Positions 1-61,367 of a stretch of 64,000 nt of DNA are shown in pieces. The position numbers and the translations under genes were made by a program. Under the pieces are notes generated by a model. That model did not search any database. It was not told the DNA's origin and saw nothing but the letters and a program-made list of their open reading frames with translations. Numbering within the stretch: the first letter of the stretch is position 1; each line of letters starts with the position of its first letter. This DNA comes from Macrostomum lignano (taxonomy: Eukaryota), in the NCBI GenBank assembly GCA_002269645.1, contig NIVC01002967.1, forward strand, positions 64,323 to 128,322, in the 5' to 3' direction.

Positions 1-3000
1 GAAGTACAGGCCTCGTAAGGTAGATTCCAAAGTGGCTTTGATCCATAAAGGCCCCATGCTTCGAAAGGTTCGGCTGACCTTCCAAGAGGCCCCGTCTCTG
101 ACGTGTCCCAATGGGCTATTCGCCCAGTGGGTCGAGCTAGGCGCCGTGAGAGCCGATGCTCAGAACCTCTGTCCGTGTTTTCGAACCAATAACGTCAAAA
201 GACACTGCTTGGCAAATGGCAGCATTTGGAAAGGCGAGACCGCTCCGCCAAAGGACGCTTGGTATCAGCCGATAACCGAGGAAGAGAAGGTGGAGCTGGA
301 GCGGATCGGTAAAACAGCCGTCGTCGAGCTAGCGGAGTCCACGGCTGCGCTCATCAAGCGCCAGTTCCAACACTACAACAAGGCGAAGCCCAGTCGCCTG
401 GCACCGCCCGTCGACCAGCTGCCAGAAACGCCGGTGCCGCGCAAGAAGAAGCAGTCGGCGGATGACGGCACGGACTCGTCTCCAGAAGCGCAGTTGCCTG
501 TGAGTAAAGAGTGAAGTTAAAAATTTCGTGCTTTTTTTAATGCATTTTTTAATATATAAGAAATATATATTAAGTCACTCATAATATTTCCACAGAAAAC
601 GGTACAGTTCCAACCGCTAAAGAAGCCCAAGGCGGCGGCAGCAGCTGCAGGATCAGCCCCTGCCAAACGCAGGTCGTCGGATGAGGAGTCGCCATTGGCG
701 TCCATCGCGGCTGGCGTCGCGGCCCCACTTGAAGGGGTAATTTTTACTGTAATATTTAGTTGTTCATTTACGGCAAAATTCAATGCGTATTATGTGTGGC
801 AAACCAAAAACTGCTGAAGGTTCCTTAACCAAATCTATTATTTTACAGCAATATTCCACACGTTATATACATAGTGAAAACAGAGAGTATGGAAATCCAA
901 ATGCTGTAAATTCCGTTAATTTAATATTCACCTACAGTTTAACACGTCCAATAGGCTGTAAATTCAAGAGTATTAAAATCGACACGTACAAGTTACAGTA
1001 TTTTACTACATAATCTAACTTTAACCGTGAAGTAGGTTCGTTACATGTACGTTGCAAATTTACTTTTGACTATAAACTTAATCGAACTTCTCAAATACTT
1101 CATTTGAAATTTTTTATTTGAAAACCAACTACCATTCTCTTTCACAGATGGATTCGTCGTTGCCGCCTTTCGTCAGCGTCCACCGGCAGCTCCCAGCACT
1201 AGCCAGTTTCGGTGTTCCGGTGGTGGCACCGGCTAGTTTTGCGGATGCCGCATTGCCCTCGGACTGGCTCCTCCTCACCAGGCTCATGACGGCGCCGGAT
1301 GCCGACCAGGGCGCTGATTCCCTGGCCGCTCTGAATGCCTCGTTTGACAGCAGCACCCAGAACGGCCGAGATGACCTGGCCATTCTGGCTGGCGCCCTGA
1401 ACAGCCTAGATAAATGTGACCTATTGGCGGTTCTTTTTAATTTTGCTATCCGCCAGAATGGAAACATCAAGGAACTTCAGAGCTGCTTATTTGATTATAT
1501 CAACGCTGGAAAGGACCACCGGACCTATGGCATGCAGCGGATCAACTTCGGCGGCATCACGGAGCGAGACGCGATTTACACCGAAATGGTGTTTGACCGG
1601 GAGTTAAACTTAGGTCTGTTGATCCACAGGTTGAACGGTCTCAGCCGACGTAAAAGCGCTCCGCCCAATCTAGGAGAGGAATCGGAGGACAGCGTGGTCC
1701 AAAGACCAATGACAAGACAAATGGATGCGTCGACAAAGCCAAAGCATGCTGCCACCGCTGCTGCCTGCATCGTCTGTCCCAGTTGCTGCCGAGCCGGAGA
1801 CAACTGTCGTGCGCTCTAAGAGCGCCATCGAGGTAAGAGACTAAAATTCGAAATTCGCAAAATACTGAATTTCACTAGGTATTCAAATTTCCACACGTTC
1901 ACAACGTAGTAATATACCCCCACAATCACTACACACAGGCTGCCGAGTCGGCTTTATGCGCCGACACTGCTGCAACAACCACCGCTTCGGGTGCCGGCAC
2001 TGCCCCAGCAGCAGCAGCAGCAGCAGCAGCAGCCTCAACTATTCCGAAGGCCAATAAAAGGCGCGGCAAGACGGCTGCTAGGGGCGCCGCCGCTTCCGAT
2101 TCCGGTGCGCCGTCTTCCCCGGGAGGTCGTACTGCGGAGACACCGGCCGTGCCTTCTAAGAGCGCTATCGATGTAAGAGACTGAAACTCGAATTTCGCAA
2201 GATATTAAATTTAACTACGTATTGACATTTCCACACGTCCGCAACGTATGTAAATTATAGTGTACCAAAATTCAATACCCTTTAAAATTAGAACCCTGCA
2301 AGATAGAAACATTTTACGATATTCCTAAATTCAACTTGTAATATACCCCCACAATCACTACACACAGGCTGCCGAGTCGGCTTTATGCGCCGACACTGCT
2401 GCAACAACCACCGCTTCGGGTGCCGGCACTGCCCCAGCAGCAGCAGCAGCAGCAGCAGCCTCAACTATTCCGAAGGCCAATAAAAGGCGCGGCAAGACGG
2501 CTGCTAGGGGCGCCGCCGCTTCCGATTCTGGTGCGCCGTCTTCGCCGGGAGGTCGTACTGCGGAGACACCGGCCGTGCCTTCTAAGAGCGCTATCGATGT
2601 AAGAGACTGAAACTTTTTCGCAAGATATTAAATTTAACTACGTATTGAATTTCCACACGTCCGCAACGTATGTAAATTATAGTGTACCAAAATTCAATAT
2701 CCTTTAAAATTAGAACCCTGCAAGATAGAAACATTTTACGATATTCCTAAATTCAACTTGTAATATACCCCCACAATCACTACACACAGGCTGCCGAGTC
2801 GGCTTTATGCGCCGACACTGCTGCAACAACCACCGCTTCCGGTGCCGCCGCTGCCTCAGCAGCAGCAGCAGCAGCAGCAGGCTCAATGAATACGAGGGCT
2901 GCTACAAGGCGCGGTAACACGGCTGCTACGGACACCGCCGCTTCCGGTGCCAGTAAAACGCCCGCCGACATCGCCGCTGGCGCCCCTGCTGGCGCCTCTG

Positions 3001-3341
3001 CTGGCGCTTCCGCTGGCGCCTCTGCTGCCCGCACCTCCGCTGGCGCCTCCGCTGGCGCCTCCGCTGGCGCCTCCGCTGGCGCCTCTGCTGCCCGCACCTC
3101 CGCTGGCGCCTCCGCTGGCGCCTCTGCTGCCGGCACCTCCGACGCCTCCGCTTCAGAAAGCGCTGCTAGGGGGATCACGATACGCAAGAGGTCTGGTTCT
3201 GACTCGGTGCCACAAGTAACGGAAAAAAAGGAGGCGCGAGTTTCGCACCATGAAGGGAAAAGAAAACAAAAGCAACTCAGTAATGGAAGAAGGAGAGCAT
3301 GTAAGAAGAGTGCTTCGGGGCGGAAAAGTTTACCCCAGTGA
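1..3341 (+). CDS. Multi-exon gene of unknown function, 5' end outside the window. Exons <1-499, 596-736, 1148-1832, 1939-2172, 2368-2598, 2790-3341; Ala/Ser-rich basic C-terminus; one apparent +1 frameshift near 1765
   Basis: GT/AG sites at each boundary (gtgagt 500, gtaatt 737, gtaaga 1833/2173/2599; cacag acceptors). All junctions are phase 0 and the frames join the listed ORFs. Exon 3 is 685 nt (3n+1), so one frameshift is needed. No domain recognised. Confidence 0.65.
1905..2885 (+). repeat. Tandem duplication of a ~425-bp intron+exon unit (2 full copies plus 1 partial)
   Basis: taatatacccccacaatcactacacacaggctgccgagtcgg recurs at ~1910, ~2340 and ~2761, each followed by a CAG/GCA tract. 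Confidence 0.95.
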
Positions 3342-3529
3342 CTCGGACAGTTCGACATCAAAGATTTAATTTAATTTTTCTAATTTGCTTACAAGTTCTC
3401 CACTCTGGGCAACTCTGCGTGACAAGTTTTGTTCTAATTTCTGTTTTAAAAGAAAAAAATACATTAGAAAAAGAATTCCAGCAACTTTTCGTTCTCAAAG
3501 AAAAGAATGGAAAGAAAAAACTACGAACC

Positions 3530-5190
3530 GGTAAATCGAACTTGACCCTCGTGTCTACTGCTTCGTGACAGTCTATTTTTAAGAAACTTCTGAGATTCGA
3601 ACAGTAAAAAAGTATGGCACATCGAATTTCAGCACGTCAACAAGATATGTAAATTTGAATTGTGTAGTAAATTCGAGCATGCTAAACTGTAGAATTTCAC
3701 TACGCATTGAAATTTCCACACGTCCACAAGATATGTAAATTACACAGTACCGAAATTTGAACGTCGCAAAATGTCGAATTTCACTACGCATTGAAATTTC
3801 CACACGTCCACAACATATGTAAATTAGTCAGTACCAAAATTCAAACGTTGCAAAATATTGAACTTCACTACGCATTGAATTTAGCTACTGGGAATAATTT
3901 CCTATGGAAATAAGTTACCCACCCCGACTGCTTGGCGGCCAATGTGCAGTTGCGAAAAACTGACGCGGATTGGTAAGTCGAACTCAGATTTTGGCGAAGT
4001 CTGTGAATTCAAGAAAATTAAAATTACCCGGCGACTAACTCAATCGACTGGATATCAGTCCAGCAGGCTCTACTTTGAGTGGCGCCGGTCAAAGTACTTC
4101 CCAGAGGTCTCACGGACGAAGAAGAGTATTTTGGTACCTTCCGAATTTCATACACATCTTATGTAGCAAACTCTATGGGTAGTAAAATGATTTTGCTACG
4201 TATGTGAAATAAATACACACCCAGTGTACCCAACTCTTAGCTAGGAAATTCAATTTTGGCCTAAAAACTCTTCAGGCGCCGAAAAGGTCTCCATCGTAAT
4301 CAGCGCATTGAATTTAGCTATTGTGACTAATTTCCTATGGAAATAAGTTACCCACCCCGACTGCCTGGCGGCCAATGTGCAGTTGTGAAAAACTGACGCG
4401 GATCTGCAAGTCAAACTCGAATTTTGGCAAAGTCTGTGAATTCAAGAAAATTAAAATTGCCCGGCGACTAGCTCAATCGACTGGATATCAGCCCAGCAGG
4501 CGCTGCTTCGACTGGCCCCGCTTAAAGTACTTCCCTGAGGTCTCAGGGACGAAATAGGATATTTTGCTACGCTTCAGAATTTCGTACACATCTTGTGTAG
4601 CAACGTGTATGGTAGTAAAATGATTTTACTATGTATCTGAAATAAATACACACCCAGTGTACCCAATTCTTAGGTAGGAAATTCATTTTTGGTCTACACA
4701 CAAATTCAGACGCCGAAAAGGTCTGCATCGTAAGCAGCGCATTGAATTTAGCTAGTGTGAATAAAAAATACATAAAATTCCAACTTGACTCTCGTGTCTA
4801 CTGCTTCCTGATGCTTTTTTTAAGAAAGTTCTGCGATTGCAACATTAAGAAAGTACTGCACATCGAATTTCAGCACTTCAACAAGATATGTAGATTAGAC
4901 TTGTGTAGTAAATTCGAGCATCGTAAATTGTAGAATTTCACAACGTTTTGAAATCATCCTACGTCAAGCAGGGACGTAAGGTAGAGGGTAGCAAAATATT
5001 GAATTTAACTACGCATAAAAACATTCATACGTAAAAGACATCGTCAAAAGAAGGGTAGCAAAAAATAAACGTAGTAAATTGCATAATTTTGCTACGCAAC
5101 AAGATTTTCATACGTAAAAGACATCGTCAAAAGAAGGGTAGCAAAAAATAAACGTAGTAAATTGTATAATTTACTACGCATCAAGATTTT
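3530..5190. repeat. Composite tandem-repeat array: ~84-bp units, two 434-bp units and a duplicated ~165-bp block
   Basis: actacgcattgaaatttccacacgtcc at ~3700 and ~3784; cattgaatttagcta at 3872, 4306 and 4740; 3535-3700 resembles 4778-4945; catacgtaaaagacatcgtcaaaagaagggtagc at ~5026 and ~5110. Confidence 0.9.
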
Positions 5191-5329
5191 CGTACGTCAA
5201 ATGGTATTTAAAGAAGAGAGTAGCAAAATTCGCGAAAAGAAAAATATTGAAAATACAGCGACCAGTTCATCCCAATTCTGCTACTGTTAAATCCACGGAA
5301 ACGGTTGGCATTGGAAACGATAAACAAAC

Positions 5330-6810
5330 GCATTTCCCGAATATTATTTTCCCCTATTAGGGCCCTTCTTATCCCAAACAGAATCCCAAACAGATAGACA
5401 CTTGTTTTCTGGATCGGGATGAATTTGGTTATGCAGATTAACAATGAAGCTATAGTCGTAATCACTCACTCCAAGTACATCCGAGTAATTATATTCCACC
5501 GATTTAGTAACGTAATCGTCGTATCTATACTCGCGAAACTCACCTGTAGCGAGATCATTTACTCCATCGTTAAACCCTAGCAAATTCCATTTCATATCGA
5601 ATTCAATTTCATTGTTAGTAAACCTCTCTTTGAACAAAGTAGTTACCTGTTTGAGCTTGTTGGCTCCTTGTATTGAATTTATATTCTTCATTGTACTCTG
5701 TAGTTTCTTTTCAAGTGCTTTTAACTTCTCTTTATCATCAGCCGCCTTCTCAATTGCAATTTCGAGTCTAGTCTTTCGGTGGTTTAACTCACTGCTAACA
5801 AGGTCTGATATTTTAAGAAATATGTCATTTATACTACTTAGTTCTCTCCACTCATCATCATCAAAATAGTAAATACCATCGCTATTGTAAATTATATTAT
5901 TTTTCTTATATTCATAAACAAAGTTGGTTATGTTAACGTCAGTGAAATTATCATCAAGATACTCAATTCTACCATAATAATCATATTTGCTTTTCCATTC
6001 CTTATATTTGTTATAGTTTTCTTCACTTGCCCATTTCTTTAGTGTACCGATAGTAAGTCTGTCCTGTGCATCAGCAGAGCTGGCACTGGTGCTATTCCAC
6101 AGCTTCTCACATGCCTCGGAATCGAACCTATTATAATTTGCTTTTGACCAATTAGTGAATACTTTGTACATTTCATCACCACTGTCTATGTCGCGGAGTA
6201 TAAGTGCTACCTTGTACCAAGAACCATAGTCTTGGTTTTTGTGTTGTATTATACTTAACAACTTTGAAGCTCCTTCACAAGTGGGGGGTGGAACGGTGCT
6301 TTTTAGTGCCTGTTTATCGGGTTCTTGGTTTTCTTTTTTATCCTGTGGCTTAATTAATCTATTTATCTCATCAAGAATTACATCTGTCCCTCGCACTTTG
6401 TACGTTTGTATTCCTTCATTTCACCATCCACATAATAGAAACCTGGTGGAGCAAATACTAAAGCCGGAATATCAAAACCCACACTTTGTTGAATCGTTAC
6501 TTTTAATCCATCTACCTTGTTAAAGTAAAAGTGATGACCCTTGTTTGTCTGAACAATCCAATCACAATGAGTCATACACAGTTCAATCAACTCAGGGCAT
6601 AGGTCAGCATTATCAATATCGATTACGGTTATATTTGAGATTTTCGTATCTATCCAAATCATGTTGTCTGCCTCTGGTCGAAATGGTGGGGAGGTTGAAT
6701 TCCTATCTGCTTTGGTTGGCATTCCTGACGGTATTTTTTTCTTTGTTTTACTATTCCATGTTATACTGCAACTTCCGAATCTAAAATTAAGTTCTCTATA
6801 GAGATTAATT
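5330..6810 (-). pseudogene. Viral-type primase-helicase remnant: AEP prim-pol + PriCT-2 + D5_N, frameshifted near 6390 and truncated before the SF3 ATPase
   Basis: ORF 6378-6722 has AEP motifs TVIDID, QTNKGHHFYF and GFDI. ORF 5344-6396 has the PriCT-2 pattern (DYGSWYKVALIL..FTNWSK..LWNS..LTIGTLKKWA) and D5_N (NLLGFNDGVNDLATGEFR..DYVT). No Walker A follows. Confidence 0.85.
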
Positions 6811-6812
6811 AG

Positions 6813-7310
6813 TTAATCGTAAGATTTTGTTTGTTTTAAATTTGTCAATCTTGGTGGTGGGGCATCATGGTTTTGAAGCGGATCCTGTACGATCACAGGA
6901 GAGACACTTGAATCATTCTGATTTTTTCTTTCCATTTTATTAAAAATAAATTTAACAATATATTGTAATTTATCGGTTTCAATGTACTTCTCACGGGTTA
7001 TGGGGAGTTTAAAAATGTTCAGTTTCAGCATGACGAAAAATTCATCATTCCTTATGTGCTGTCTCGAAATCAATGCCCATTTATCAACATGTGCAAGATA
7101 TACTCTGAATGAATACAATTATGGGGGGCATTTACAATCGGTGTGTTTTAATATTTCTACTTTATATTCATCGTAAGCTTTATCAATTTCTTCAATTAGT
7201 CGAGCCTTTCGAGTGGGTGTTTTATTTGAGAGAAACTTACAATAGAATCATAGTATTTTTGTGGCAGAGCATTTCGAACATTTGGGTTATTAGCTTCCAA
7301 TTTTTCTAAG
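6813..7310 (-). pseudogene. Degraded AT-rich ORF upstream of the primase, product unknown
   Basis: ORF 6813-7118 continues upstream through frameshifts (…LEKLEANNPNVRNALPQKYYD…IEEIDKAYDEYKVEILKH…). Same composition and orientation as the primase. Confidence 0.35.
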
Positions 7311-7838
7311 AAAAATTAGCAGTTACAATCTGGTTTTTGAATTCTGGTTTCGCTGATTGAGAGATTGAGACTGACTCACACCACACTCCGCTGCCACTCT
7401 CCGAGACTCTCACAGGAGTTCAGTGTTTTTTCATCTTCATCAAACCCCCTTATTCAACCCATAAAAGACACTAGGGGCACCCCTCATGCTAGCTGTCTTT
7501 CACAACAATTTATAGGCTGATGCAGGACTGGCACACTCACCAACTCTCAAACGTTATGCTAGTTATTTGTGTGTGTTTATTAAAAGATACTCTCTATCTC
7601 AACTCGCACAACGAACGCGTGAGTAATTGTTAGAGATTCTTTGTTGAAACAAATACACTCACACACATATCAAGTTTAACGCATGGCTCACACCCACACA
7701 CTTTTGCTAGTTGTAACCTGTTATCGGCTGACTGCGACCCTCCCCTCCATCGCTATATTAGTTTTATTTAGCTTAGCAAGCAAGAGCAAGAGAAAATTTA
7801 CTTTAGGTCTAGAATTCTATCTATACAACATATTTCAA

Positions 7839-10800
7839 ATGGCTTCTTCCAGCGATAGAAAGCTTCCATCTAAGATAGTTTCCACGATTAAGAGTATTAG
7901 CTCAAAAGACCAATCAAGTTCAGCAGTTGCAGTTAGTCGCTTGTCTAGCGAGGAGCAGAACTCATTACTGGAAAAACTGCGAAAGATTGAATGTGAGTCC
8001 TTCAAGAAGGATAAGAAGGAAGAGAAGAGCAAAGAGAGCGATTCTAAATCTATTAGAGAAAGCCGATTTATTGGACGCCTTATCGAAAAAATGAGAGGAG
8101 TGACAAACGAAGTAACAACTATCAAGACTCGGTGTCTTGTTGCCTCGGTTTATATCCCAGGGGACAGAGACCCTGCTCCTGAGAGTTTACTGCGCCTCGC
8201 GCAGTACTGCGAGTCCCAGAACGCTGAGCTGTGCTTAGGGGGCGACCTTAACGCGCACCACAAGCACTGGGGCAGCAAAGATACCAACACTAGAGGAGAG
8301 GAGCTTCTGGCCCTCATCTTTAACACAAACCTCATGCTCTGCAACCGCGGCAGCACTCCTACCTTTAATAATGGCAGATGGACCGAGGTCCTCGACGCCA
8401 CACTCGTTACCCCAAGACTCTTTGACAGAGTTGAGGAGTGGAGAGTCTGGTCTGAGGAGCCCTCCCGGTCTGACCACTGCTTTATCGCCTTTAACATCGC
8501 GGACACTAAAACCCAGTCTCCGATCACTTGGAGGCGCAATATCCGCAACACTGATTGGGCGGCCTACAAGGCTGCCCTTGATCTGCACCTGCAGGAACTC
8601 ACGGACTTACGTCCGATTGAGACCTGCGAGGATGTGGATCATATGGCTGAGACGCTGACAGGTTGCATTATTGCAGCCTACGTAGCGGCTTGTCCTGCTC
8701 GCGCCTACAAAGGCAAGACCTCGGCGCCGTGGTGGAACCCGGAACTGGGGAAACTCAGGCGGAAGGCCAAAAGCCTTCATCGCCGTGCCATGAAGACCGG
8801 AAACCCGGAGGACATGGAGCTTTTCCGGCAAGCCTCCCGCAACTTCAAATCTGAAGTGCGCAAGGCCAAGGAATGTAAGTGGCGCCAATTCTGCAATGAA
8901 TTAGATCAAGACAGACCTACTTCTAGGCTTGTCAAGGCCCTTACAATGGACAAAATGTCCAAATTAGCCATGATCAAAAAAGATGATGGCTCTCTTACTA
9001 AAGACCCTGAAGAAGTGCTACAGCATATGCTCAGCACATTCTTCCCGAGGGTACCTACTGCTAGACCGGAGCCCAACCATTCGATGGATGGAGCCACCCT
9101 AGCGGCGGGCATTGTCACTGAAGACCTAATCGCTCGTGCGGTCAAAACCTTCAAACCCTTCAAATCTCCTGGACCTGATGGTATCTACCCTGTTCTCCTT
9201 CGTGAAGCAGCCAAGATACCCTCGTTCCTGAGACTCACCCGCAATCTTATGCGGGCCTCTATCCAGCTGGGATACGTTCCCAAATGCTGGACTGAAGCTC
9301 GGGTAGTCTTTATTCCCAAACCTGGGAAGGGTGACTACCAAAGCGTCAAGGCCTTCCGGCCTATTAGCTTAACGTCAGCAATGCTTAAGCTCACTGAGAG
9401 GCTTATTCTCTGGCGGCTGCTGTCCTGCGAGCTGACAGCGATGCCCCTCAGCAATAATCAGCACGCCTTCCATACCGGGAGGTCGACTGACAGCGCCCTG
9501 CATGCGATTGTCGAGAAGATTGAAAGGGCGGTACTGGGTGACGGTTACGCTCTGGCTCTCTTTCTTGACATTGTTGGCGCCTTCGACAACGTTATCTTTG
9601 AAGCGTTTCAGAGGGCCCTTCAAAATCGCAAAGCTCATGCTACCCTCATACGGTGGATCATGTACATGATCTCCAACCGTACGGTCACTGCCCAACTTCT
9701 TGGGCAAACTGCCTCCACCAGAGTCTGTAAGGGTGGACCCCAAGGCGGAGTCCTCACCCCGACGCTCTGGAACCTGGTCATGGACGCTCTTTTGAGTGAC
9801 TCCCGACCCGACCCCGTCTTCAAAGTCGGGTATGCTGATGACGTCACGGCCATTGTGGCAGGACCGTCTCCCAGCACGCTCAGGGATCTGATGCAGAGCT
9901 TTATCCGCAAAGCAGAATCCTGGGCCAATGACAATGGTCTGGAACTCTCTGAGCCCAAAACCGTTGCCATTATGTTTACCAGCAGACTACGCTGGAACAT
10001 ACGTCCTCTGCAGCTCTACGGCAGAGATATTGCCTTCGCGCACCAGACCAGATGCCTCGGGGTCATACTTGACCACCGGCTCAACTGGTCCTCCCACGTG
10101 AAAGCAAAAGCCAAGCGTGCCTCAGCCATCCTGGCCCAGCTCCGACGAGCACTTGGCACTTCTTGGGGTCTATCCCCAAAGCGGCTTTGGTGGATCTATA
10201 CTTCCGTAGTTAGACCTGCCATTACGTACGCCTCTGATGTCTGGATTAGCGCTACCCAGGTAAAAAGCCATGCAGACCTGCTCAACACGATCCAAGGCAG
10301 AGCGTGTAGGCTCATCTGCAACGCCACCAGGTCCACGCCCTTTGCTGGCATGGGGGCCTTCCTTAATATTCCGCCTCTTGACCTCTTCATCAGGGGTGAG
10401 GCGGCTAGAACGACGCGGCGTCTAATTGATGCCGGCGTCAAATTCATTTACATGAGAGCACCTGCTAAGCGGAACCTTGTCCCGCATAGCGATCTGTGCC
10501 TCAACTTTCTCAACGAGTGTCAGGCCAATCGCGTCTTCACCGATGGCATTGCCTCAACGCTCAACCTGAGACAGCGCTACTCCGTAGCTATCGACTCGCG
10601 CGATAACATCAATGACCAATGGAACCCTGGTGAGCTTCATTGCTACACCGACGGTTCTAAGCAGTCAGCCAACACCGGCTTTGGTGTTGGAATCTTTCTG
10701 AACGGGAGGGTCATCGCTACCCACGCTCAATACACTGGGGTCAACTCCAGTGTTTTCCAAAATGAAGTTCTGGCCATCAGCTCCTGCACTGCAGAGCTTC

Positions 10801-12199
10801 TCGCCACTGGCGTTACTGGTAAGAACATCATTTTCCATTCGGACAGCCTAGCTGCCTTGCACGCCATCAGTGGCTGCAGCACCAACTCTGCTACAGTCCT
10901 CGACTGTATCAAACTTCTCAACGTGTTGGGTTCCGCCAACAAAATTACCCTTAAGTGGGTTTCGGGGCATGTGGGGATCCGAGGAAATGAGTTGGCTGAC
11001 ACCCTTGCAAAAGTTGGTGCCTCCGGCTCCTCTCTCGGCCCCGAACCTCTTGTCCCGATTCCTGGCTGTGTCATCGACTCGCGCATCAAAGCGTGGATCA
11101 GGACTCAGCAGACTTGGGCGAACCGCACGAACTGCAGACAATCCAGAGGCGCTGTCCCTCAGCCCTCTCACCAGCTCCGGAAGCTCCTCTTGCGCCTCTC
11201 GCGCAGAGACATCCGGGCTGCCACCATGACCCTCTCTGGTCACGGCTGCTTCTCCAGGCACCAGTACCTGCAGGGCAACGCCACCAACGCCACCTGTAGT
11301 TTCTGCAACTCAGGTGACGAAACCGCTGAGCATTTTGTCAGCATCTGTCCCGCCTTCACGCGGGCCAGACTCACTTACCTCGGGCCACACACATCTATTA
11401 CTGAAGCGTGCAAACCCGAAAACTTTAATCAGCTCATGCGCTACCTTCGGGCCACCCGCAGGGCTGAACTCTCCTTTCCAGAGAGCACCATAGCTGCTGG
11501 CGACACTGGGGGACCTCCCTGGGCGGCGCCAACCCTCCGTCCATAGCGACGCGTCGGCCGTTCAGGGACTAGCGGAATGGGCGCCCGCGCCTTCCCGCTG
11601 TGTCCCCTCCGGGACAGCCCTGCAGCTAAGTCAAGTCAATCAAGACTCGGTAAGTTTCAGTTTCATTCTCCATAATTTCATTGAATAAAAGCAAATATCA
11701 TAACTTGAGTCTATTTTCATTATAGGTTCTACAACGCAAAGGTGTGCACATCTATCATTGGCGATGATGAGACTCGCATGATCCAACGGTTCAATCAACT
11801 GGAGGGTTTCATCGCCGACCTTGAAGTGCTGGGTTGTATTGCCAGTAAGAAGAAGCAGAAGTAATTGCTGCGTTGCAAGAAAAACTCGGACTGAGCATTG
11901 AAGGAGTTGCGAGAAAGCTAGATATAGATGTGAAGTTTGCCCAGCGACTATTTACATTCTACAAGCTAACAACAAAGTACCCGAGTCTGGTAATTTCTGG
12001 ATATTGCTTTGAGACCCTTCTGACGTTCAAGAAGGCAATTGAACAAAGAGCATCAGAAGATGAGAATTTCGCATGCCGCCTCGAACTCGACATCGTACTG
12101 CACTTTGAAGGAGAGGATGACAGCATGCTTGATGAAGAAGAGAACGACACGATTGAAGCAGCCACTAGCGAAATGGGAAGCGCTTCTATTGATGAATAA
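7839..12199 (+). pseudogene. Spliced gene of unknown function interrupted by the LINE. Exon 1 is 7839-8131, intron 11650-11725, exon 2 runs from 11726 to the stop at 12199
   Basis: Removing the LINE and one TSD copy restores exon(phase 2)|gtaagt…tatag|exon in frame (…TIKTR-FYNAKVC…). A stop near 11863 needs either a frameshift or a 35-nt intron to reach ORF 11873-12199. AATAAA overlaps the stop codon. Confidence 0.6.
8134..11638 (+). mobile_element. 5'-truncated non-LTR retrotransposon (LOA/R1/I-group-like) with partial APE, RT, RNase H and a C-terminal zinc knuckle
   Basis: Open ORF with GDLNAHH..WGS and SDH (APE), GPQGGVL and YADD (RT), YTDGS and GHVGIRGNELAD (RNase H), CSFC..ETAEHFVSIC. 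Tail of aagtc repeats. 13-bp TSD atcaagactcggt at 8121-8133 and 11639-11651. Confidence 0.95.
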
Positions 12200-13054
12200 A
12201 CACATGACAGACAAATATCCAGAATTTTTTCTGGACGTCCAGAAAAATTGACATGCTACTACTTAAAGTGACAATTATCATTCAAACATTCACTCCGCGC
12301 TACTTACCTTAGTATATACCTTGAAAACAACTCTTTGAAATAAAGGCTGCCTTTGTGCTCCAGTGGAGCCACCCACTCTGTGTGTCTGAGAGTCTTTTGT
12401 GTTTGCTTCATTTATTTTTTTCTAATTCTAAAAATAGACAAAAATGTGCCACGTTAAGGGGTTCTGATACATCATCAGCATTGTGAGTCAGAGCTGTTGG
12501 CTTGCAAAAGAATACCCTCGTATATGAAATTCGCCAGGATACTTTCCACTGGAAAAGATGGGTGGTAGTTTTGTTATAGCTGACTGAATATCTAAGGCAT
12601 TTCCTAGAAATATTGGTTTACTGAAGGCCATTTTATAATATATAAAATTTCCTATCGTTGAATTGGATGACACTTTCATATTGTATATACCTGAAATTGC
12701 ATTAAATTGACCCGTGAATCCAACTTTTCTCATGGTTTTAGAGTTGGAATCGTGAAAATTGCACTTTTTCAATTTTTTGAAAATCACAAAAAATCGCTGT
12801 TTTCAGACCATTTTCACCTGTTTTTAGTCAATTTTTCACTTATTTTTAGTGATTTTCAAAATGAGTGAGGGCATGAGGGCAAGGGCACCCCCCTTTTTAA
12901 AAAGTATAAAAATTCCGGAAAATCTGTGTTCTGTGAAATTCCACATGCCAATGCCCCCACATGCCCTCACCCTCAACACCCTCACTCACAGATATATGTA
13001 TATTTATGTATTTTTATATTTATCACACACCACTTGCAACTCTGACCTCCTGGT

Positions 13055-13154
13055 AGTAGTAGTATGTTATAAGGGGCTGAGTCATCCAGCGAGCTGGCGC
13101 GCAATGCGCCCGAGCAATCAAGTGTGGCGCAGCCCCTTATAACATACTACTACT
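13055..13154. mobile_element. 100-bp element with perfect 25-bp inverted termini starting AGTAGTAGT (Maverick/Polinton-type end)
   Basis: agtagtagtatgttataaggggctg (13055-13079) is the exact reverse complement of 13130-13154. No TSD is visible. Confidence 0.6.
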
Positions 13155-13479
13155 TGTACGTTAAAACATTTTATTATTATTAGTAAAACTTGTGTTGCTA
13201 GAAATCTCATTGGTATCCTGACTCAATTCTTTAACTGTAAATACCAGAATTAGGGAAAGCAGGAAACTGGTGGCAGCGAAATCTACCAATATACCCCGAA
13301 AATCCACTAAGTTCTAAAGTAGAAAAAACCAGTAAGCCTAGACTGCGAGTACCACGCTTGTCCACCTTCGTGTACACGCATTTAATAATTATTTTCAACG
13401 TAATTTCTCCAAGGCAACCCCCAAAAACTCTGCCACACGCAGCTCCTAACGAGCAAAAGCAACAGCGGCATCAGCAAGA

Positions 13480-15177: not shown

Positions 15178-17626
15178 TTAACAGCATATCGCGAAAACCC
15201 ATATGGTCAGCTTGGCTGACCATGGCTGTAAGTAGTCTATATGAAGTATAATAACGAGAAAACATGCATTCAAGCATGTCAAAAACTCAAAAATATCGTC
15301 AAAAATATCAAAAACATGAAAAAATTTTCACAAAAAACATGAATTACTAAAATTCCTTTTCTCACTCTGCTAAACGGGTGAAAGAGCATAGCTCGAAGCT
15401 GTCTGCTCAATCGCACCTGAATAGTAGGGTGCTGAACTAGTAAATAACGTTCTGTTTTCGACTTTTTGAAACTTTTTCAAGTTCTTAGTAGTTAAAACTT
15501 TGAAATGGTCTCAATATTTTGAATTTCTAGCTTCCAGATGTAGCATTGCTTTGAGTTCTTTTCTAATAAATTTTGCAAAAGATCCAGTAAATGTAGCTTT
15601 ACTTCTGTTGCTATTACACTACCTAACTTTTATGCAATGTGAGGCAAGACAATAACAGGTAGTCGGCAGGAGTAAAACGAACAACTCTCCTCTCAGCCTA
15701 CGAGTGCCAGGCTCGAAAGCAGTCAGGGATGCACAAGCCGGGCTGACCCGGGCACTGCTGACAGACGAAGACGGTACGTTTGGTGATGCCATTGCGATAG
15801 CAGACTCTGCAGCGACGTGTTACTGGGCAAGTGAACAGCATCGGCAACAGGACGCGATGGGTGGACGCACCGTCTTTTTCCAGGCCCTGAGCTGTCTATC
15901 AGGGCAACGATCAGTTGTTCCATGAACTTCAGAAAAGTCAGTGAGCCGCCGGAGTGCCGGAACAAAATCCAGGCATTTTGCGACAGCTGCAATAGGAAAT
16001 GAATTCCGAGCTTCTGGTGCCAGCGGTACATCTTTCTGCTTGGGTGGTAGGGCTGCAGCGCAGAGTCAAGGCGGTCGACACCACCCATGGACTTTGAGTA
16101 GTCCGTCACAGTCACCGGCTTTCGAACAACCTCCATTTGTCCACCTCGTCTGTACCGTTGTCGCGCAGTGCTCTGGGCCGTACCGAAGGTGTCAAGCAGG
16201 TAGACTGTCTTAATACCGCTTGCTTTTCTGTCTGTCAGCTTCACTGCCAAAACATCACCGCTTCGCATGTAGCAGTGGGATGGAGGCACTGCTGGCATCT
16301 GCCGGAGCTCGACTGGAATGCCGCGGTCACAGCGAACGGTGCCTGTTAGTAAGGTACTGTGAGCTAGTAGAAACTCGGCCAGTCGTCGGGAGGAGAAATA
16401 ACTGCCAACAAACACCCTGTAGCCAAGATTTAGCAGGTCCTTCGAAGCTCCACCACTATTCGCTCGCTGATGGACAGGTTGTAGTCGACGAATTCGCTGC
16501 CAAACTTGCTGTTTTCCTCAGCTGTCGAATGAACGAGGACGCTCCATAAGTAACCGGTCTTGGAGTCACAAAGACAATAGGCCTTAATTCCATATCTAGC
16601 CCGCTTGCTGGGAATATACTGTTTGAACGCTAGTCGTCCTTTGTGCTGAACAAGCTCCTCGTCAACAGCGATGTCCCTGTCAGGCTGAAAATTCTGCTGA
16701 CAAACTTCCTTTACTGAGTTCAAGAACGGGCGGATTTTGCGAAGCGGATCGTCATTGTCACCAACGCGACAGTCGTAGAACCTCAGAAAAGATAAGATTT
16801 GTTGGAACCGGTTTCGAGACAGGCAGTTTTCACTCAGGAACAACTGGTTGTCATAAAACTTTCCAGTGGCCCAGTAGTTTTTTATCTCTGGCTTGCGCAC
16901 GATTCCCATGTAAAATATTATTGCGATGGTCTTTTTTATCTCATCATCTGCACAGTCTCTCCAATCGGTCAATCTCGGTGGCAGCTGCTGGTCATCCTCT
17001 TCGTTCTCAAAGATTCGCAGCTCCTCCCATGCGCGAGCATTGGTGAATTCTTTCAAATGACTAATAATGTCCTTCGTGAATAAGTTGAAAAAGAGTAACG
17101 GCTCATTTGCTGGTGCTTGAACACCAGGATTCATACCGTGGACTCCGAGAAACTCGGGAAGCTGCCCAGCTCTGTCATCTTCTCCGTCGTTGACAATTGT
17201 CCATTCGTTTTCCTCATCCTTCATCTCCAAGGTTGGCTCCTCAATTACTTCAAAAACTGAGTCCTGATCTGACTCAGTCGATGAGCTGTTGGACTCGTCG
17301 CTTGTAAGAAGTTGATGAAGACTCATTATTACTTATCCGTCGAAATAGCAAATTATATGACAATTCTTCTTAAAATGAAGAGGCAAACAATCTAGATTGA
17401 ATGTAAAGGAGAAAAATCTTTCTAGGGATAGTGACTTAGTAGGTACGAGGAAGGAAGGGCAGAAGCAGTCCACAGTGATAGGTTCTATGGCTGAAACCCC
17501 AAAGCAGGTCACAGAGTGTTCCAAACACACTCTCTCAAGTAACGGGTTTTGGCGATGTTAAAGCAGCACTATAATTTTACATAGCAGTAGTCTATGGTCA
17601 GCCTGACCATACGGGTTTTCGCTTAA
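15178..17626 (-). mobile_element. piggyBac (PGBD4-like) transposon, inactive. Transposase remnant at 17326-15698
   Basis: DDE_Tnp_1_7 motifs LSRNRFQQILSFLRF, AVDEELV, QYIPSKRARYGIK and MGGVDRLD, plus a Cys-rich tail CRVC..VFVCQQC..LC..CF. Frameshifts near 16440 and 15815; DNY changed to GSY. Inverted ends gcgaaaaccc(a/g)tatggtcag at 15191 and 17622, with TTAA at 15178 and 17623. Confidence 0.9.
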
Positions 17627-18504: not shown

Positions 18505-20278
18505 GAATATGATGAAGTTGACCTGGCCTTTTTTGACGTCGTGTGGGATCCGCCGCACTGGTTAGACCTCATGGTACGTGATGTGCTGCGGTTGAGCCCA
18601 GCAATGCAGCGCACTGTAGCCGCCCTTCGCTGGCTACACAAAAAGTTGCAGCGCGGCAAGATGACCGTGGCAGCCGACCAATTTGCGGCCATGTTGGAAG
18701 ATCGCAAGGCGCGAAAGACGCAGTCCTTCAGCGCCACGCGCTTTGCGTCTTCAAACTTTGCAGTGGTCGAGAAGACCGTGTCGGAGCTGCCCATTTGGTT
18801 GGCAACCCTTTCCGGGACCAGCCGCCGACTGTCGAGAAAAGATCGCGACCGCCTGGCCTACCTGCAGTCGGCCCCATGCATAGTTGAGCTGCTCGTGCTG
18901 CATGATGTGCTAAAGCCGATTTGCGCAGTCATGCTGCGTGGGCAAAATCTTCAGCTGCCCGGTTGGCACGTAATCGGCGACCTGTCGGCACTGGCTGTTA
19001 CGCTGGAGCAAATAAAGATAGGAATGCAGGGCCTGAACCAGCCCGACGCGAATCACGGCAATCAGTTGCACTTACACTACATCGGCCCATCGGCCGTCAC
19101 CTGCAAGAGCTGCGGAATGGTCGCTTCCGTAGCCTGGAGGTTACCACTTCGGCGGTCATTCCATTCCCCACCACTGGCAACGACGTCGACGGCGAAGAGT
19201 CGGCAGATTCGGATACAGAGTCCACCGACTCCGAGGACGCTGCGGACGCAGGTAAGTGAGGCAGTGTGTGGCACTGTGGTGTATTACTGTAATGATTAAA
19301 TTTTTACCGTAAATTTTCCGATTCGACCGCAACTTCCAGGCTCCCATGATGAAGGCCAGTCTTGCGAATCTTGCGACCACACGGTGGAAGCAGCCCTCAA
19401 GGCGTCGCTGGCCATGGTGAACAGACTTTGCGAGTCTTTAAGCCGCCGGAGCTCGGAATCCGTGCCGAATTTTCTTCACCTGTTAGAGGCGTCTTTCGGG
19501 CTCCACGGCTACCTGCGAGCACTTTGCGGCAGTCGGCGGCAAGGAATGGTGCGGCTGCGCTTCGAAGGGGCCTTCCTTGTCCACGGCCAGCAGGCCTTCT
19601 GCGCAGCGGTCGGCGCAGCAAGAACAAGGCAATGCATTCGCGAGCTGCTGGCCGACTCCAACGCACTGCAGCTCCATCGGGCCTGGCGTGACGCCCTGTG
19701 GGCCATAGTCTGGGAAGATGACGCTGCTGCCAGGTGCTGCCGGCAGGTGAAAAAAGATATATTATTATATTTTGGTTTTTTAAATTGTTTTGAATTCCGA
19801 TCTAGTCTCAGCTCAGCTTTACTACATCTCACAGGCAATATTCGGCACAGATTGCCCAGATGACCGCGTAATGATGATGTCGGCCTCATCAGATTCCTCC
19901 GAGTCCGACTTCATGGTAGATTTCGGCGATGGTCCAGTGCCTTTACGAGTTAGTGAAGGAGCGTTCTGTGCTGCTATTTATCGAGAGCCCGCCGTCTACG
20001 AAAAATTTGGGACGAAGCTGTGCGCCCTATACGACTGGGCATTGGCGAAGCGCGGTCCCGAGGCAATCGTTGAGAGCGTCTACACCAGCATGAAGCGCCA
20101 GTGCCAGCAGGGCGCCATTCAGCTGGACGAGACGCTGGAGCTGCGGGCAAGGCTGGCGTGGCATTTGCCGCCGTCCGTCAGTTCAATGCCACAGACAGTG
20201 ACTGCGATAGCCAAGGAGTGGCTGCGAAAAGCTAGTGGCGTTTTTCGTAAGACACCGGCAATCAGTGCAGCTACTTAA
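18505..20278 (+). pseudogene. hAT-superfamily (ZNF862-like) transposase remnant with introns: exons ~18505-19251, 19340-19746, 19835-20278
   Basis: WDPPHWLDL (C/WxxH motif), SATRFA (TRW-like) and the C-terminal dimerisation-like PEAIVESVYTSMK..ETLELRARLAWHLP. GT-AG introns preserve the frame. Frameshift near 19070. The 5' catalytic part is missing. Confidence 0.65.
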
Positions 20279-20289
20279 GTCTGGCGTAC

Positions 20290-20930
20290 TTAAGCCATGC
20301 GCTGCAATAGGGATCACATCTTCAGTCTGGAACTGTAGCACAATCTCGTGAATCTCCTTATTACTCGTTTCGCTTTCCCTTAATATTCGTTCGCTTTCCC
20401 GTAAAAAAACCCAATCAAGACTGAGATTACTTCTGATTCGAATATTCAAACCTTTTACAATGTCTGCAATATTGGGTGCTAAGAACAAACCGCTTACACT
20501 TTCCCGGGCCATGCTAACAACCCACGATGATTCTGGCGCTTCAGTTCCAGTCCGCGCCGTGGATTCTACCCTAAGCTTTCTGCTCAAATCCCAATTCCCT
20601 ATACCAAGTGTCATCTTTAAACTCAACCTCCGCATCTTTGTGAACTCTCATTACAGTGAGATCATAGGCTAGTTTGACAGGGAACAGTTCTGGCCTACTC
20701 AGATCAGGTGTCTTAAAATGGCCTCTTTTAGTAAAGACGTTTTCTAGAAAGTAATTGTAAATATCCACACTTTGCGTGCTCACAGGGAATACCACAGCTT
20801 CTGCTGCCACACCTTTCCATTTGTAATAAAACTTATTATTTGCTGCCGTCACATTAAGAACGTTTGACCAACCAGTGAATCTTATTTCGCAAGGATCAAT
20901 ACCCCCGAAGACGTTGCAAAAACAGTTCAT
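20290..20930 (-). pseudogene. Minor capsid protein (penton), frameshifted near 20600
   Basis: NVTAANNKFYY…VFPVSTQSVDIYNYF…VEFKDDTWYRELGF…APNIADIV..IRSNL…IHEIVLQFQTEDVIPI follows the Maverick/adintovirus penton pattern. Confidence 0.75.
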
Positions 20931-21589
20931 TTTCCTTATATTGCGGCTCGTCTTCTTGAAGAAATACTTCCATATTTATCCTTCTTAAGTCAGATTTTCT
21001 GTGGCTGGATGTGGGGGGGGGTATAAGTTTACTTCTTTGTTTCTGTTTCAATGCAACAATGCGTTCCTTGAGAGTCGAAAGAGACGGCATGTTTTGGCAG
21101 AAGAGACATGCACAATTCTTCCTTGAATTTAATAAAGAAGACTATAGAAAGTTCTAGAAGAAAAAATTGCTGTCATGACTATTTTTAAATATTCATAGAG
21201 GCAAACTAGGCGGACCAAATTCCGAGGCTGAGGCCGAATAGGCAGGCCAACTGGCCTCGCAATTTGGCCAATAATCAATATCAGTCAAGGAGAGAATCCC
21301 AACATACACAGTCCATGCATGCTAATGGCGGCGAAGCGGTTGATTTTTTCCTTTTCTGCTTTTCTGGGAGAATGAGAGAATCCCTATTGTGCGCAACTCT
21401 TTAGGGAATAAAAAACTGTCCTTACTCAAATCCACACTTGGCACCCCCCCCCCAACATATTCTCCATCTGCTCAACTAAGCATAATTTGTACACTGCTTA
21501 AAAAAGCATTTGCACATAGCAGGCTACAACAGCGACAGCTATGTTTAAGCAGCTCACATTCTCTCAATGATCAACATCAATACAAACTC

Positions 21590-22156
21590 TTCACTGTTGC
21601 AGCAGTCTGCCTGTTTTTTTACTGGGCGCGTGCAATAGAAAACCTAACCTTTCTCCCAAACACCCCTCCAATCCAAAAAAATGAGCCCTATTTTTTGGCT
21701 TGAATAATTCTGCTCTTTCAACCCCCAGCTCTCTCAGCAGTCTTCCTAGTTCTTCATTAGGAGCATGCAATACAAAACCCACCCCTTCTCCCAACAGCCG
21801 CCAATCCCCAATCCCAGATTTGTCCCACGAAAAATAACAGCTTTAACTAGCTTCCGAGTGATCGATTCCATCCACCCGCTTGAAGTCCCCATATTGTCTA
21901 GTCTCCTAAGCATTTCTTTGTCCCAGCAATTCTTCTCTGAAAAATCCCTATACTTAACGTCGTGCCACATGCAGACAGAGTCTAGCTTGTTCACCGGCTC
22001 ATGCCCAGGATTTTGATTATTGTTTTTATCTAACTGAATTTCAAGCGGATTCAAAGACTCGCAATATTTGTAGCTGGGAATTGTCCAGCCTTCGTTTGGA
22101 TGAGGAAGCTTTTCTATCAGTCCATGTGAATCTAAGTTACCACCAGAGCGTTGCAT
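21590..22156 (-). pseudogene. PLA2X (parvovirus VP1-like phospholipase A2) protein
   Basis: GGNLDSHGLIEKLPHP..GWTIPSYKYC..LNPL..QL…PVNKLDSVCMWHDVKY…WDKEML..LD…LGLG. The His-Asp catalytic dyad is retained, but the Ca-loop (YxGP) is degraded to YCES. Confidence 0.8.
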
Positions 22157-22180
22157 TTTATTAAAAATCTTCTTTAAAAA

Positions 22181-23036
22181 ATGACAGAGCAGAGACTTTA
22201 AAAGCTCTACTACAGCAACAAAGCATTCTTTTTAGGAAAAAATGCAGTCACCAAACTCGCAGAACTAAGTAATGAATCAAAGCAAATAGTTAAAAGATGG
22301 CTTTCCAAGCAAGCAGTCTACCAAGAAGTCTACTTCCTACCTCTTCAATTTACAACACCTCACTTTAGCATTATAAACCTAATGAGGCGTACCAAGCAGA
22401 TCTTGTTTCTCCCCAATGACTGAGGCTACAAGTATGCTCTCATAGTTATATACATTGCCTCCAGATATAAGGAAGCGAGACTACTCAAGACAAAGAAGTC
22501 AGAAGCAGTTGCAGCTGCCCTCCAAGAAATTAAAACTCTCCGCTCACATACCCCCAAACCTTTATGACTGATCCTAGAAAATAATTCATGGGTGCAGTCA
22601 AATCTCTTTTGGAAAAAACAATACGAAAATGTGCTACAGAAGAACTGAGCTCTACAGAGACCAGGCTTTTGTGGAAAGATCCTATACCAAGTGGACAGAA
22701 AGACTCCCCACTGAAATAAATCAACTGAACAATGAAGCATCTCAAGTGACAAACCTGAAACCAATTACTGCCATCAAACAAGACACAGTTAAATCAAAAC
22801 ATCAGATAGGAATATATTCTCCAGAAATTCTTACTTACTCTGAATTCGTTCGCCTCCTTTACTTACCAGGAGAGCTAGAAAAGGACACAAAGAGAAGAGC
22901 AACATACCCATACTTAAGTCTTGATGTACATAAGATAGATAGGAATTTCACATCAGCATCCAGTGATTACTATTTTCTATCCCAAGCCTTAAATTCAAAA
23001 GCCCCACATGATCATTCACAAAGGCTGAGCTTCTAG
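22181..23036 (+). pseudogene. Maverick/adintovirus retroviral-like integrase, multiply disrupted
   Basis: WLSKQAVYQ…PNEAYQADL…YKYAL.VI.IASRYKEA..LKTKKSEAVA…MTDP…RDQAFVER…VRLLYLPGELE..KRRAT. The D-D-E residues are readable across stops and frameshifts. Confidence 0.85.
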
Positions 23037-23078
23037 TAATTCCACATGATACAGAAATAAATACTTTTTTTAAATAAA

Positions 23079-23490
23079 ATGATTGAAACCAGATCCGTGA
23101 ATAAAATCAACAGAATTATCGAATCAAAGAAGCCAGGTGTTGTGTCAATTAAAGGTGTTAATGTCAAAGTAGATCCAACACATAATATCACTGATGAGAA
23201 GACTGGCAAGATTCTTCCTTTGGCAACTCTAATCCCCATCCTAGTAGGCGCTCTTGGTTCCGCAGGAGGTGTAGCCAGCAGAGTTGCATCAGCTGTGAAG
23301 GCTTCCAATGACAGTGCACATCAATGAGAGATGGAGAAAATTGCTAGAAAAAAAGGAGTGAGAATTGGAGAAGGAATGGGTAGTTGTCCATCAGTTGATG
23401 AATCTGTTGACGAAATTAGCAAATCAGAAATTGTTAAAGCCATCATGACACTGCATAAAGCAGGATTTACAATATTTTGGATGTGAATAC
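23079..23490 (+). pseudogene. Small Maverick-type protein with an amphipathic Gly/Ala-rich segment (premature stop at 23325)
   Basis: ILPLATLIPILVGALGSAGGVASRVASAV…Q*EMEKIA resembles the conserved small core/membrane-active protein of Mavericks. The frame continues to ~23490. Confidence 0.5.
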
Positions 23491-24524
23491 AAAATAGAAC
23501 AGAATCTGCTTCTTATTACAGCAGTAATTCCTTATACTTTACACGTCACTTGAGAGTGACCACCCTAAAATTTTTGTTAGTTTTTTAATTTTCATTTAAA
23601 ATGTCTAAAGAAAATCCTGAAAAAAAATTATCGAATCTATCTTTCAAAATAATTATCCTTAAGCTCAAAAGTTTTAACAAAAAGTAATGTTCTGCAAGAT
23701 CTGTGCTAGAAGGCTTGGACAAAAATTGATTTTAGTCCAGGAGTAACATTGTAACAAATTTATAAAAAGCATTTTTAACTATTCCAAGCACCGGCATATG
23801 GTATAACAAAAAAATTGTTTTAGTGCATGGTGCATTAGAAAAAAATGGGAGAAGTTTATTCTAGCGCACATGGTATACCTTCCTGACTATGGTATTTTAT
23901 TAGGTATATTTCCGATTTTTATAAAACCTAATATTGAGTAATTTATTCTCAAAGTTGCACATATATTTGTTTTTATACAATTTTTACCTTATGGTATTCT
24001 CACTAAAGTCCCTATGCTATTTATTGCTTTAAAATTGCCAAAAATGAATTTGAAAAAACTTGCCCGGTTAATTTTTGGATTTTGCCTTCTTTTAGGGCAG
24101 GCCCTAATTAAGGACTTCAATAAGATTTTGAAAGTTGAAAATGATATAGAAAAAATAAAAATTTATAATTCTAACACTCTCCTCTGGCTTTATCAAATGT
24201 ATGTATAAAAATACAAAAAAAACTTTCAAAATCTTAGTGAAGTCCTTATCCTAATAAAGAAGTTGTAGACTACTTCAAGTTACAATAATTTTCATAGAAT
24301 GAATTATAATAAACAAGCTGTTGAAACCCGCGGATTTTGAACCCGGGGAACTCCATTTCCCGGAATTATTTTTGCATGTATTCTAAAATCTAAGGTAAAA
24401 CTTAAACAAAAACTTGTTCCCTTGTTAATAGTTAGGATAGAGTTAAACATAAAGTAGTGCACATTCATGTAAAATTAGGATTTGAGGCAAACATTGATAT
24501 TGTTGGCTGGGGTGCTGCGCAGAA

Positions 24525-34273: not shown

Positions 34274-51494
<17,221 letters not shown>

Positions 51495-59814: not shown

Positions 59815-61367
59815 ATGATGCAACAGTCTGACGGCAGTTTTTCCTGTTCTGACATTACAGAGATATCAAATATTCATCCCATCCAGCATTCCCACGGTAT
59901 ATTTCGCTGCGAAGTGCTTCGAGAAGCCACAAACGGTGGCAGTCATTCTGCAATGAAGTCCTTTGCTAAGAGCAGAAAAATGACGAAAGAGATCTTGCAG
60001 AACTGCAAAGAAACAGAGATGCATTTAGGCGCGAGTACGAACTTCTAGCAAGCTTCAAGGATGCGAACTCCAACACGGCGCATCCCCACATTGTTTCGGT
60101 CACTGCCTACTTTGAGGTGTATCTCGATTACGGACCGTTGTTTTTGATGGAGCTTGCCGAATGCAGCCTGTTTGACGTCCTGAAAGACGAAGTAGCCTAT
60201 CAAACTGATGATGCCGAAGGCAAATACTCTTTTAGCCACTGCATCAGCTTTCTGTTTCAAATTTCTACAGCACTAAAATACTTGCACGGAGGAATTCGCT
60301 TCAACAATGAGGTAAAGCCGGTCATTCACAGAGACCTGAAAAGTTGCAATGTATTGCTGTTTAACCAGGGCAGACTATGCAAGCTTTGCGACTTTGACAT
60401 CAGCAGACCGGTAGAAAATATCATGACTGGAGGCGTCGGAACTCCCGGCTGGAGAGCACCGGAGCTGATGCCGCACAGTTCCGACAGACGGCTGGCATAC
60501 ACCGTCGCAGCCGACTGCTTCTCGTTCGGTGCACTCTGTCTGGAAGCGCTGTTCCGCGAAATACCAGATAAAATAGGAAAACCTTATTGTCCTACAGATT
60601 ATCAAAGTGCTGACAGTATTATCTACTTCTGCGAGCGTACAAGATTGGTGGCACGTCTGAATGACTCGAAGTTCAAAGATTCTGCCGCCTTCGGCCTCCA
60701 AATGCCGGTAATCAAAGATTTGCTATCGGGTTTGCTTGACGATGAGCCCGATAAGAGAATCACAGCCAGTCAAGCATTTGAAACTCTGAGGAGTCTCGCT
60801 CCTCAAAGCGTCTCTCCTCTATACGGACCAGAGATTCCCCACACCTCAATCGGAGTTGGACAACGCGAGGTTAGTGAACCCATCGTTCTGGAGTCCACCG
60901 TTGAACATCCGCGCATCAGCACCAGTGAACCGAACGAGTTCGTTTCCGTATTCTACACAGTTAAGCAAGCCAATTCAAATGCTGAATTTAACGATAATGA
61001 CAAGAAAAGAATTCAAAAAGTGATGGAAGTGATGATCGAGACACTGAACACTCTTGCTAGCCCAACTGAAACGCCTTGCACCGCAAACTTCTGCATCTGC
61101 TTAACCACAGCCGATCTAGCCAATTTGATTCTAGAAATCAAAATAAAACAAAGCAACAAAAACGAAGTATCGGTGCTTGAGTGGTGTCAGAATAACGAGA
61201 AAAAATGTTCTGAGCAGTTCAGTAAATTTTTTTCAGAAGATCCAATCGTTAAGCTGCAAGATCTGGTATTCGGCATGAGGATTCCAATCAGTTTATGCCC
61301 GACGCCGATGTCGAAAGAGAAGACACGCCTGCGCCGTCGATTACGTCAAGAGCTTGCGCATTTCTAA
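59815..61367 (+). CDS. Intronless TKL-like protein kinase (or pseudokinase), with a 1-nt frameshift in the A-run at ~59976-59980
   Basis: SAMK (beta-3 Lys) in ORF 59815; AFRREYELL (alphaC), VIHRDLKSCNVLL, KLCDFDIS, GTPGWRAPE and DCFSFG in the frame of ORF 60117, which is open back to 59970. Confidence 0.85.

Follow-up and report, generated by a model that had tools for sequence, protein, structure and literature searches.

A broken piece of a viral-type primase-helicase gene is integrated in a chromosome that is likely that of an animal. The piece lies on the minus strand between approximately 6850 and 5400 of the window, which is the whole 64-kb stretch of DNA analyzed, and represents one gene in two frames: a Prim-Pol-type AEP domain is followed, after a frame change, by PriCT-2 and D5_N. 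A stop, the frame change, and the missing helicase half prevent this copy from encoding the primase-helicase protein. We consider its parent to have probably been a polinton-like or group 2 Maverick element, namely, a small integrating dsDNA virus. The coordinates of the features are summarized in Table 1.

Table 1. Features of the primase-helicase fragment (positions in the window)
Feature	Position	Strand	Evidence
Prim-Pol-type AEP catalytic domain	6396..6812	(-)	PF09250, P0003 alignment, and invariant motifs
PriCT-2 domain	6028..6267	(-)	PF08707, E 1.5e-11, residues 52-131 of ORF 5344-6420, above the Pfam cut-off
D5_N domain	5479..5922	(-)	PF08706, E 7.4e-12, residues 167-314 of ORF 5344-6420, above the Pfam cut-off
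In-frame stop just before the AEP core	6813..6815	(-)	inside the P0003 alignment 6848-6396
Frame change between Prim-Pol and PriCT-2	6378..6396	(-)	tblastn frames -3 and -2
Gene break on the 3' side, ahead of Walker A	5372..5404	(-)	homology end 5377-5395; 12-base tandem duplication 5372-5395
Broken upstream coding stretch, inside the multi-copy part	6816..7330	(-)	stops and ATGs
Multi-copy viral-type stretch, limits approximate	5404..7370	(-)	contig depth and contig ends

Domains of the gene and its damage

The Pfam match of ORF 6378-6812(-) to Prim-Pol was weak (PF09250, E 0.001, 20 bits, below the cut-off of 22.8). The primase piece matched intact relatives at E values between 5e-39 and 2e-9 (nine rows), and the AEP domain was 43% identical to P0003, an intact metagenomic protein, over 152 columns in tblastn. 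Four residues, D 6620 and D 6614 (DxD), H 6533, and D 6473, were invariant in all five aligned sequences, and we take them to be AEP motifs I-III; the claim of the preliminary description that all three motifs are intact was thereby confirmed. The predicted structure of the primase domain, a cut-off piece, had a pLDDT of 64.7, and fold searches returned no clear match for it. The D5_N part weakly matched the structures of vaccinia D5 and mpox E5 (E 0.002). P0003 aligned by tblastn to both frames in order, with a joint E of 3e-70. Since the Prim-Pol part and the PriCT-2/D5_N part both match this protein, we regard them as one gene.

The C-terminal SF3 helicase with its Walker A motif is missing from this copy and present in all five intact close relatives. 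Walker A is located 32 residues past a QI(H/L)P motif in each of the five, and approximately 345 residues follow this motif in four of them. A six-frame pattern scan found no Walker A in the whole window, and no other part of it aligned with the helicase of any of 158 relatives in tblastn. Therefore, the earlier name of Prim-Pol/PriCT-2/D5 primase-helicase describes the domains correctly, as judged from Pfam, the relatives, and the motifs; however, the helicase itself is absent because the gene ends before Walker A. Similarly, a single frame change between Prim-Pol and PriCT-2 was found as previously described, but it is not the only damage, given the stop at 6813-6815 and the loss of the whole helicase.

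In P0003, 30 residues separate the two matched parts. We rejected the possibility that an intron, and not a frameshift, separates these parts because the window is shorter, not longer, than the relatives at the frame change. The frame change was not among the indel rows listed for the contigs compared with the window (12 of 63). At position 6815, all or nearly all of the contig depth had another letter in each of the four sequencing runs compared (see below), and the same was observed at position 7119 for another of the in-frame stops. Since nearly all of the depth differs at these positions, both stops are likely private to this copy. The fragment is likely a decayed internal piece in a transposon-rich region rather than a working gene.

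The stretch upstream of the AEP core has further stops in the same frame at 7121, 7250, 7289, and 7292. It may be a small gene of its own or extend the N-terminus, with a candidate start ATG at 6935. Positions 6850-7330, translated with X at the stops, matched no relative in tblastn and no Pfam or PHROG family. The nearest Atlas clusters to 6816..7330 were hypothetical proteins without a name (best score 0.91).

Chromosomal integration and sister copies

Integration and copies were assessed from public sequencing runs, four of which (X1-X4, from four studies) were compared with positions 4780-13400 of the window. Of the 24 runs listed, 20, from eight studies and all of a single organism, contained the stretch, with 23-42% of its sampled words; there were no RNA runs among the listed holders. 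A contig at 5135-5434 crosses the 3' break into the left flank in X1, X2, and X4, with no other letters and two gaps, while no contig across the break was among those listed for X3. Since contigs from three of the four runs join the break to the flank, the fragment is integrated in the chromosome, and the integration claimed in the preliminary description is real rather than a product of contaminant contigs. The host was regarded as an animal because of a formin gene at 37111-49490 (-), which is of the FHOD1/3 type (FH3, E 1e-29; FH2, E 2e-38; long repeat-rich introns) and whose family range presumably indicates an animal.

These results bear on contamination or a chimeric assembly with viral or microbial DNA from the sample, an explanation that we consider very improbable. 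It would fit the purely environmental origin of the closest relatives, and the rise in depth described below varies between runs, as if some sister copies were non-chromosomal. However, the contig joining the gene to the left flank was recovered without another letter from three runs of three studies, all 20 holder runs are of one organism, and a stop, a frame change, and truncation mark the copy as decayed. Contamination is largely refuted for this copy.

In all four runs, the summed contig depth in bins 5356-7371 exceeded that on either side; the values in X3 were 170-386 over the stretch, 16-25 to the left, and 31-48 to the right. Low-depth contigs stop at 5432-5434 and start at 7340, which places the repeated part at approximately 5404-7370. 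The main contigs differed from this copy at 7 of 502 letters in X1 and 8 of 380 in X3 (approximately 2%). At position 5451, the letter in the window accounted for only approximately 33 of 676 of the summed depth in X2 and 13 of 162 in X3. The raised depth and the difference of approximately 2% together suggest a young multi-copy family of near-identical sisters, and the small number of differing letters bears out the statement that the insertion is fairly young. Summed contig depth does not equal copy number, and the size of the rise varied between runs; therefore, we take a number of roughly ten or more young copies as a hint only.

We detected neither TIR nor TSD at the ends of the stretch, which shared no word of at least 8 letters and aligned no better than shuffled sequences; this comparison concerns the ends of the fragment, not those of the parent element. 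No gene for a capsid, packaging ATPase, penton, integrase, or tyrosine recombinase borders the fragment, and a tyrosine recombinase was not seen elsewhere in the window either. We inferred the kind of element from the relatives because none of these hallmarks stands beside the fragment.

Relatives of the primase and the likely parent element

A HMMER scan returned 994 matches at E <=0.001, three of which (P0001, P0002, and P0003) reached E <=1e-30. These closest relatives are intact metagenomic primase-helicases with 36-41% identity, and the same small set headed the matches of the Prim-Pol piece. The 20 relatives looked up were all environmental (from ENA, JGI, or Logan), with no animal-annotated protein among them, and their names were uninformative. 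A profile search, which added P0162, P0163, and P0164, brought up 13 proteins with E <=1e-30; no named animal was the source of any of them. When the 358-aa piece was used in word-index protein searches, there was no match among 3295 and 1851 candidates; these searches were insensitive because they missed P0001. There was no match among phage records. In viral_contigs, no match was found for the window piece, alignments A1 and A3, P0003, the recombinase-like ORF of contig L001, or ORF 11852-12196. When P0151 was used as the query, viral_contigs yielded eight distant loci (29-36% identity), seven of which came from giant-virus bins.

These loci are of relevance to a second explanation, in which the fragment strayed into the host genome from a giant virus (Nucleocytoviricota), as part of either the core D5 or an accessory AEP-SF3 paralog. 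The nearest Atlas clusters with a taxon, which carry D5_N and PriCT-2, were mostly labelled Nucleocytoviricota, with very few labelled members, and a C962R-like AEP occurs in 95 of the proteins collected. Moreover, Bodo saltans virus was described as having 11 accessory AEP-SF3 genes (10.64898/2026.10.13.758929). However, neither these 95 C962R-like rows nor the ORFs of the eight loci found with P0151 gave a match to the primase piece of the window; its nine matching rows all came from the relative set of the window or were P0061 or P0159, and its Pfam type is PF09250, not PF23162. A Pfam scan of 42 ORFs of the window detected no other giant-virus gene; it excludes the degraded frames at 11.6-15.7 kb and 26-35.5 kb and most of the 3' half of the window. 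The fragment shares PriCT-2 and D5_N with the Nucleocytoviricota core D5 and ASFV C962R, but differs in the N-terminal primase type and in its place in the tree, and has no other giant-virus gene near it among the ORFs scanned. We regard a giant-virus source as unlikely.

In the PriCT-2/D5_N tree, a set of 12 rows (SH-aLRT 96) includes the window and is separate from the 27 rows labelled as C962R-type; the three giant-virus-bin loci in the tree lay outside this set. The tree was built from 67 rows and 307 columns by a quick method, has long branches, and is without a labelled polinton-like or Maverick primase. It leaves out the near-duplicates (P0151, P0154-P0161, and the ORFs of L001 and L002) and rows with <200 aligned positions unless listed by hand; of the other rows, it takes in only the best 45. 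The set around the window is mixed in that its member P0013 has a Pfam AEP_C962R domain.

The genes next to the relatives provide a further indication. On L001, the contig of P0002, the primase is accompanied by a 74-aa ORF and a convergent 301-aa ORF (L001:1967-2872 (-)), while a second relative contig, L002, has the primase-helicase gene only. The 301-aa ORF contains, by eye, an R...K...xxR...H...Y pattern, which we take to be that of a tyrosine recombinase. Its N-terminal 90 residues were modelled confidently and matched the core-binding domains of tyrosine recombinases, including Xer (Z 8.2, rmsd 2.8 over 81), Ndc10 (Z 8.0), a mycobacteriophage integrase (7.2), Cre (7.1), and lambda integrase (6.6). 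An unrelated chain ranked first (Z 8.5), and the recombinase scores are in the commonly seen range. The C-terminal part was poorly modelled (pLDDT <50). The ORF had no sequence match in Pfam, PHROG, or PDB and no Foldseek match at E <=0.001. On the basis of the model and the pattern, this ORF on one contig is likely a tyrosine recombinase. The likely pairing of a relative with such a gene, which is typical of polinton-like viruses, and the best matches of the fragment, which are intact metagenomic primase-helicases, support the viral-type origin that had been proposed.

The preliminary description regarded this architecture as foreign to animals, a view that published work does not support. 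In group 2 animal Maverick-Polintons, pPolB often gives way to an SF1 or SF3 helicase in fusion with a polymerase or AEP (10.64898/2026.06.19.733378), and AEP-D5 primase-helicase genes adjoin tyrosine recombinases in insect-associated polinton-like viruses (PMC11296320). The Prim-Pol/PriCT-2/D5 architecture is therefore not unexpected in animals, and is already known from animal-associated polinton-like elements. AEP-S3H was also reported as a common replicase of polinton-like viruses (PMC11161782), and AEP replicases were described as pairing with tyrosine recombinases and PolB with DDE integrases (10.64898/2026.10.13.758929). In coral elements, tyrosine recombinases were counted in 52 of 4,862, and helicases in some (PMC11131425). 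Viral dsDNA regions were reported to be widespread in invertebrates (10.1101/2025.04.19.649669). No paper on this particular primase-helicase lineage was found in the literature searched, the coverage of which was incomplete.

The fragment resembles the AEP-SF3 replicases of polinton-like viruses (AHEV_PLV2 and CBEV_PLV1, PMC11296320; AEP-S3H, PMC11161782) in having an AEP fused to a D5-like part, in the likely tyrosine recombinase next to P0002, and in an animal setting, which is known for the insect-associated viruses. In contrast to the poxvirus-D5-like AEP of AHEV_PLV2 and CBEV_PLV1, with which it was compared by description only, its AEP is Prim-Pol (PF09250). It also differs from polinton-like viruses in being a broken 2-kb piece with no capsid, ATPase, recombinase, or repeats seen. 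It has in common with group 2 Maverick-Polintons/adintoviruses an animal host genome and, judging from the relatives, an AEP fused to a helicase module, and a PLA2-bearing Maverick remnant lies in the same window. However, the fragment is not associated with a Maverick capsid or protease, an integrase, a TIR, or a 6-bp TSD, and this likeness is also by description only.

It is established that PriCT-2/D5_N in D5-type proteins links to a ring-shaped SF3 helicase. The parent gene probably carried an SF3 helicase, as its relatives do, and its product would have been the priming, polymerising, and unwinding enzyme of the virus. In intact relatives, the AEP would prime and extend DNA, and PriCT-2 and D5_N would connect it to the helicase ring unwinding the template. 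An adjoining tyrosine recombinase, as suggested by one relative and the literature, may have integrated the element. Such a small dsDNA virus likely spread recently to several near-identical copies and likely left this broken, helicase-less piece.

A capsid-less mobile replicase, consisting of AEP-SF3 alone or with a tyrosine recombinase and copying itself in the host genome, is an alternative to a virus. The multi-copy part of this copy stops near 7370 with no further viral gene, nine of the ten set members with a contig size on record are on contigs of <=6.4 kb, and L001 has only the three ORFs described above. AEP-SF3 genes were proposed to be able to move on their own (10.64898/2026.10.13.758929, section 13), and the fragment resembles these proposed autonomous insertion sequences in being apparently multi-copy, with no flanking repeats and no adjoining capsid genes. 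The Bodo saltans virus paralogs, as described, are intact and reside in a giant-virus genome, in contrast to one broken copy in a cellular chromosome. However, short contigs are usual in these collections, so that contig size says little, and no terminal repeats or TSD were detected at the fragment. We consider this alternative improbable. Equally low is the likelihood that we assign to its fuller form, in which a capsid-less primase-helicase, together with a tyrosine recombinase, from a lineage so far seen only in metagenomes recently multiplied by self-copying in an animal germ line. If true, the proposed autonomous AEP-SF3 mobile elements would act as a DNA transposon in an animal. The fragment would matter more if its sisters were such short capsid-less units because self-mobile AEP-helicase genes are still a hypothesis, resting on giant-virus and protist data. 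As it is a fossil, what the fragment adds is modest: a small Prim-Pol-type primase-helicase lineage that is otherwise host-less likely has an animal host, and a young family of these elements is likely present in the species.

The Maverick remnant and other features of the window

A decayed Maverick/adintovirus remnant is present at approximately 20180-24200, with a PLA2 domain at 21746-22231 (PF08398, E 1.9e-7). It also contains a small glycine/alanine-rich ORF (23061-23327). By eye, from their motifs, we take ORFs at 20185-20975 (-) and approximately 22180-22800 (+) to be penton-like and a relic of a retroviral-type integrase, respectively; neither had a Pfam match. A PLA2 has been tied to one class of adintoviruses (PMC8502044).

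Within the favoured reading of a polinton-like or group 2 Maverick parent, the fragment might be the replication gene of the very family represented by this remnant, which we consider doubtful. Group 2 elements commonly have a phospholipase and often an AEP-helicase in place of pPolB (10.64898/2026.06.19.733378), and no pPolB match was found among the ORFs scanned in the remnant. However, fragment and remnant are separated by 13 kb that contain an intron-bearing gene, a LINE, and a piggyBac-type element, and they share no DNA likeness above that of shuffled sequences. The apparent integrase of the remnant also argues against a common family since DDE integrases were described as pairing with PolB, not AEP (10.64898/2026.10.13.758929).

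The intron-bearing gene consists of 7839-8132 and 11726-12199 (+), points away from the primase, and has a GT-AG intron at approximately 11650-11725. It had no family match of note in Pfam or PHROG. Small indels relative to the run contigs were observed at 11739 and 11852, and it has a higher contig depth than the left flank. We considered whether this gene belongs to the same element as the primase, which was not supported because of its lower depth, its intron, and the absence of flanking repeats.

The gene is split by the LINE, a 5'-truncated non-LTR retrotransposon at 8122-11651 (+) with endonuclease, RT, and RNase H in an open frame and a short-repeat tail. It is flanked by a 13-base target duplication (8122-8134 and 11639-11651) and continues the reading frame of exon 1 of the interrupted gene, giving a 1288-codon open frame from 7680. 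The empty site, in which 8120 is joined to 11639, was found in all four runs; therefore, the insertion is likely very recent or polymorphic.

A 100-base palindromic unit at 13055-13154 has 30-base arms that are 93% complementary, and its ends resemble Maverick termini; no target duplication was seen for this unit. Contig depth was raised in the adjoining 12500-13130. The piggyBac-type transposase occupies two frames at 15700-17350 (-) (DDE_Tnp_1_7, E 4e-43 and 4e-17). A single-frame protein kinase at 59970-61367 (+) is a host gene. The left flank of the fragment (1800-5200) consists of degenerate direct repeats of approximately 84 and 430 bases.
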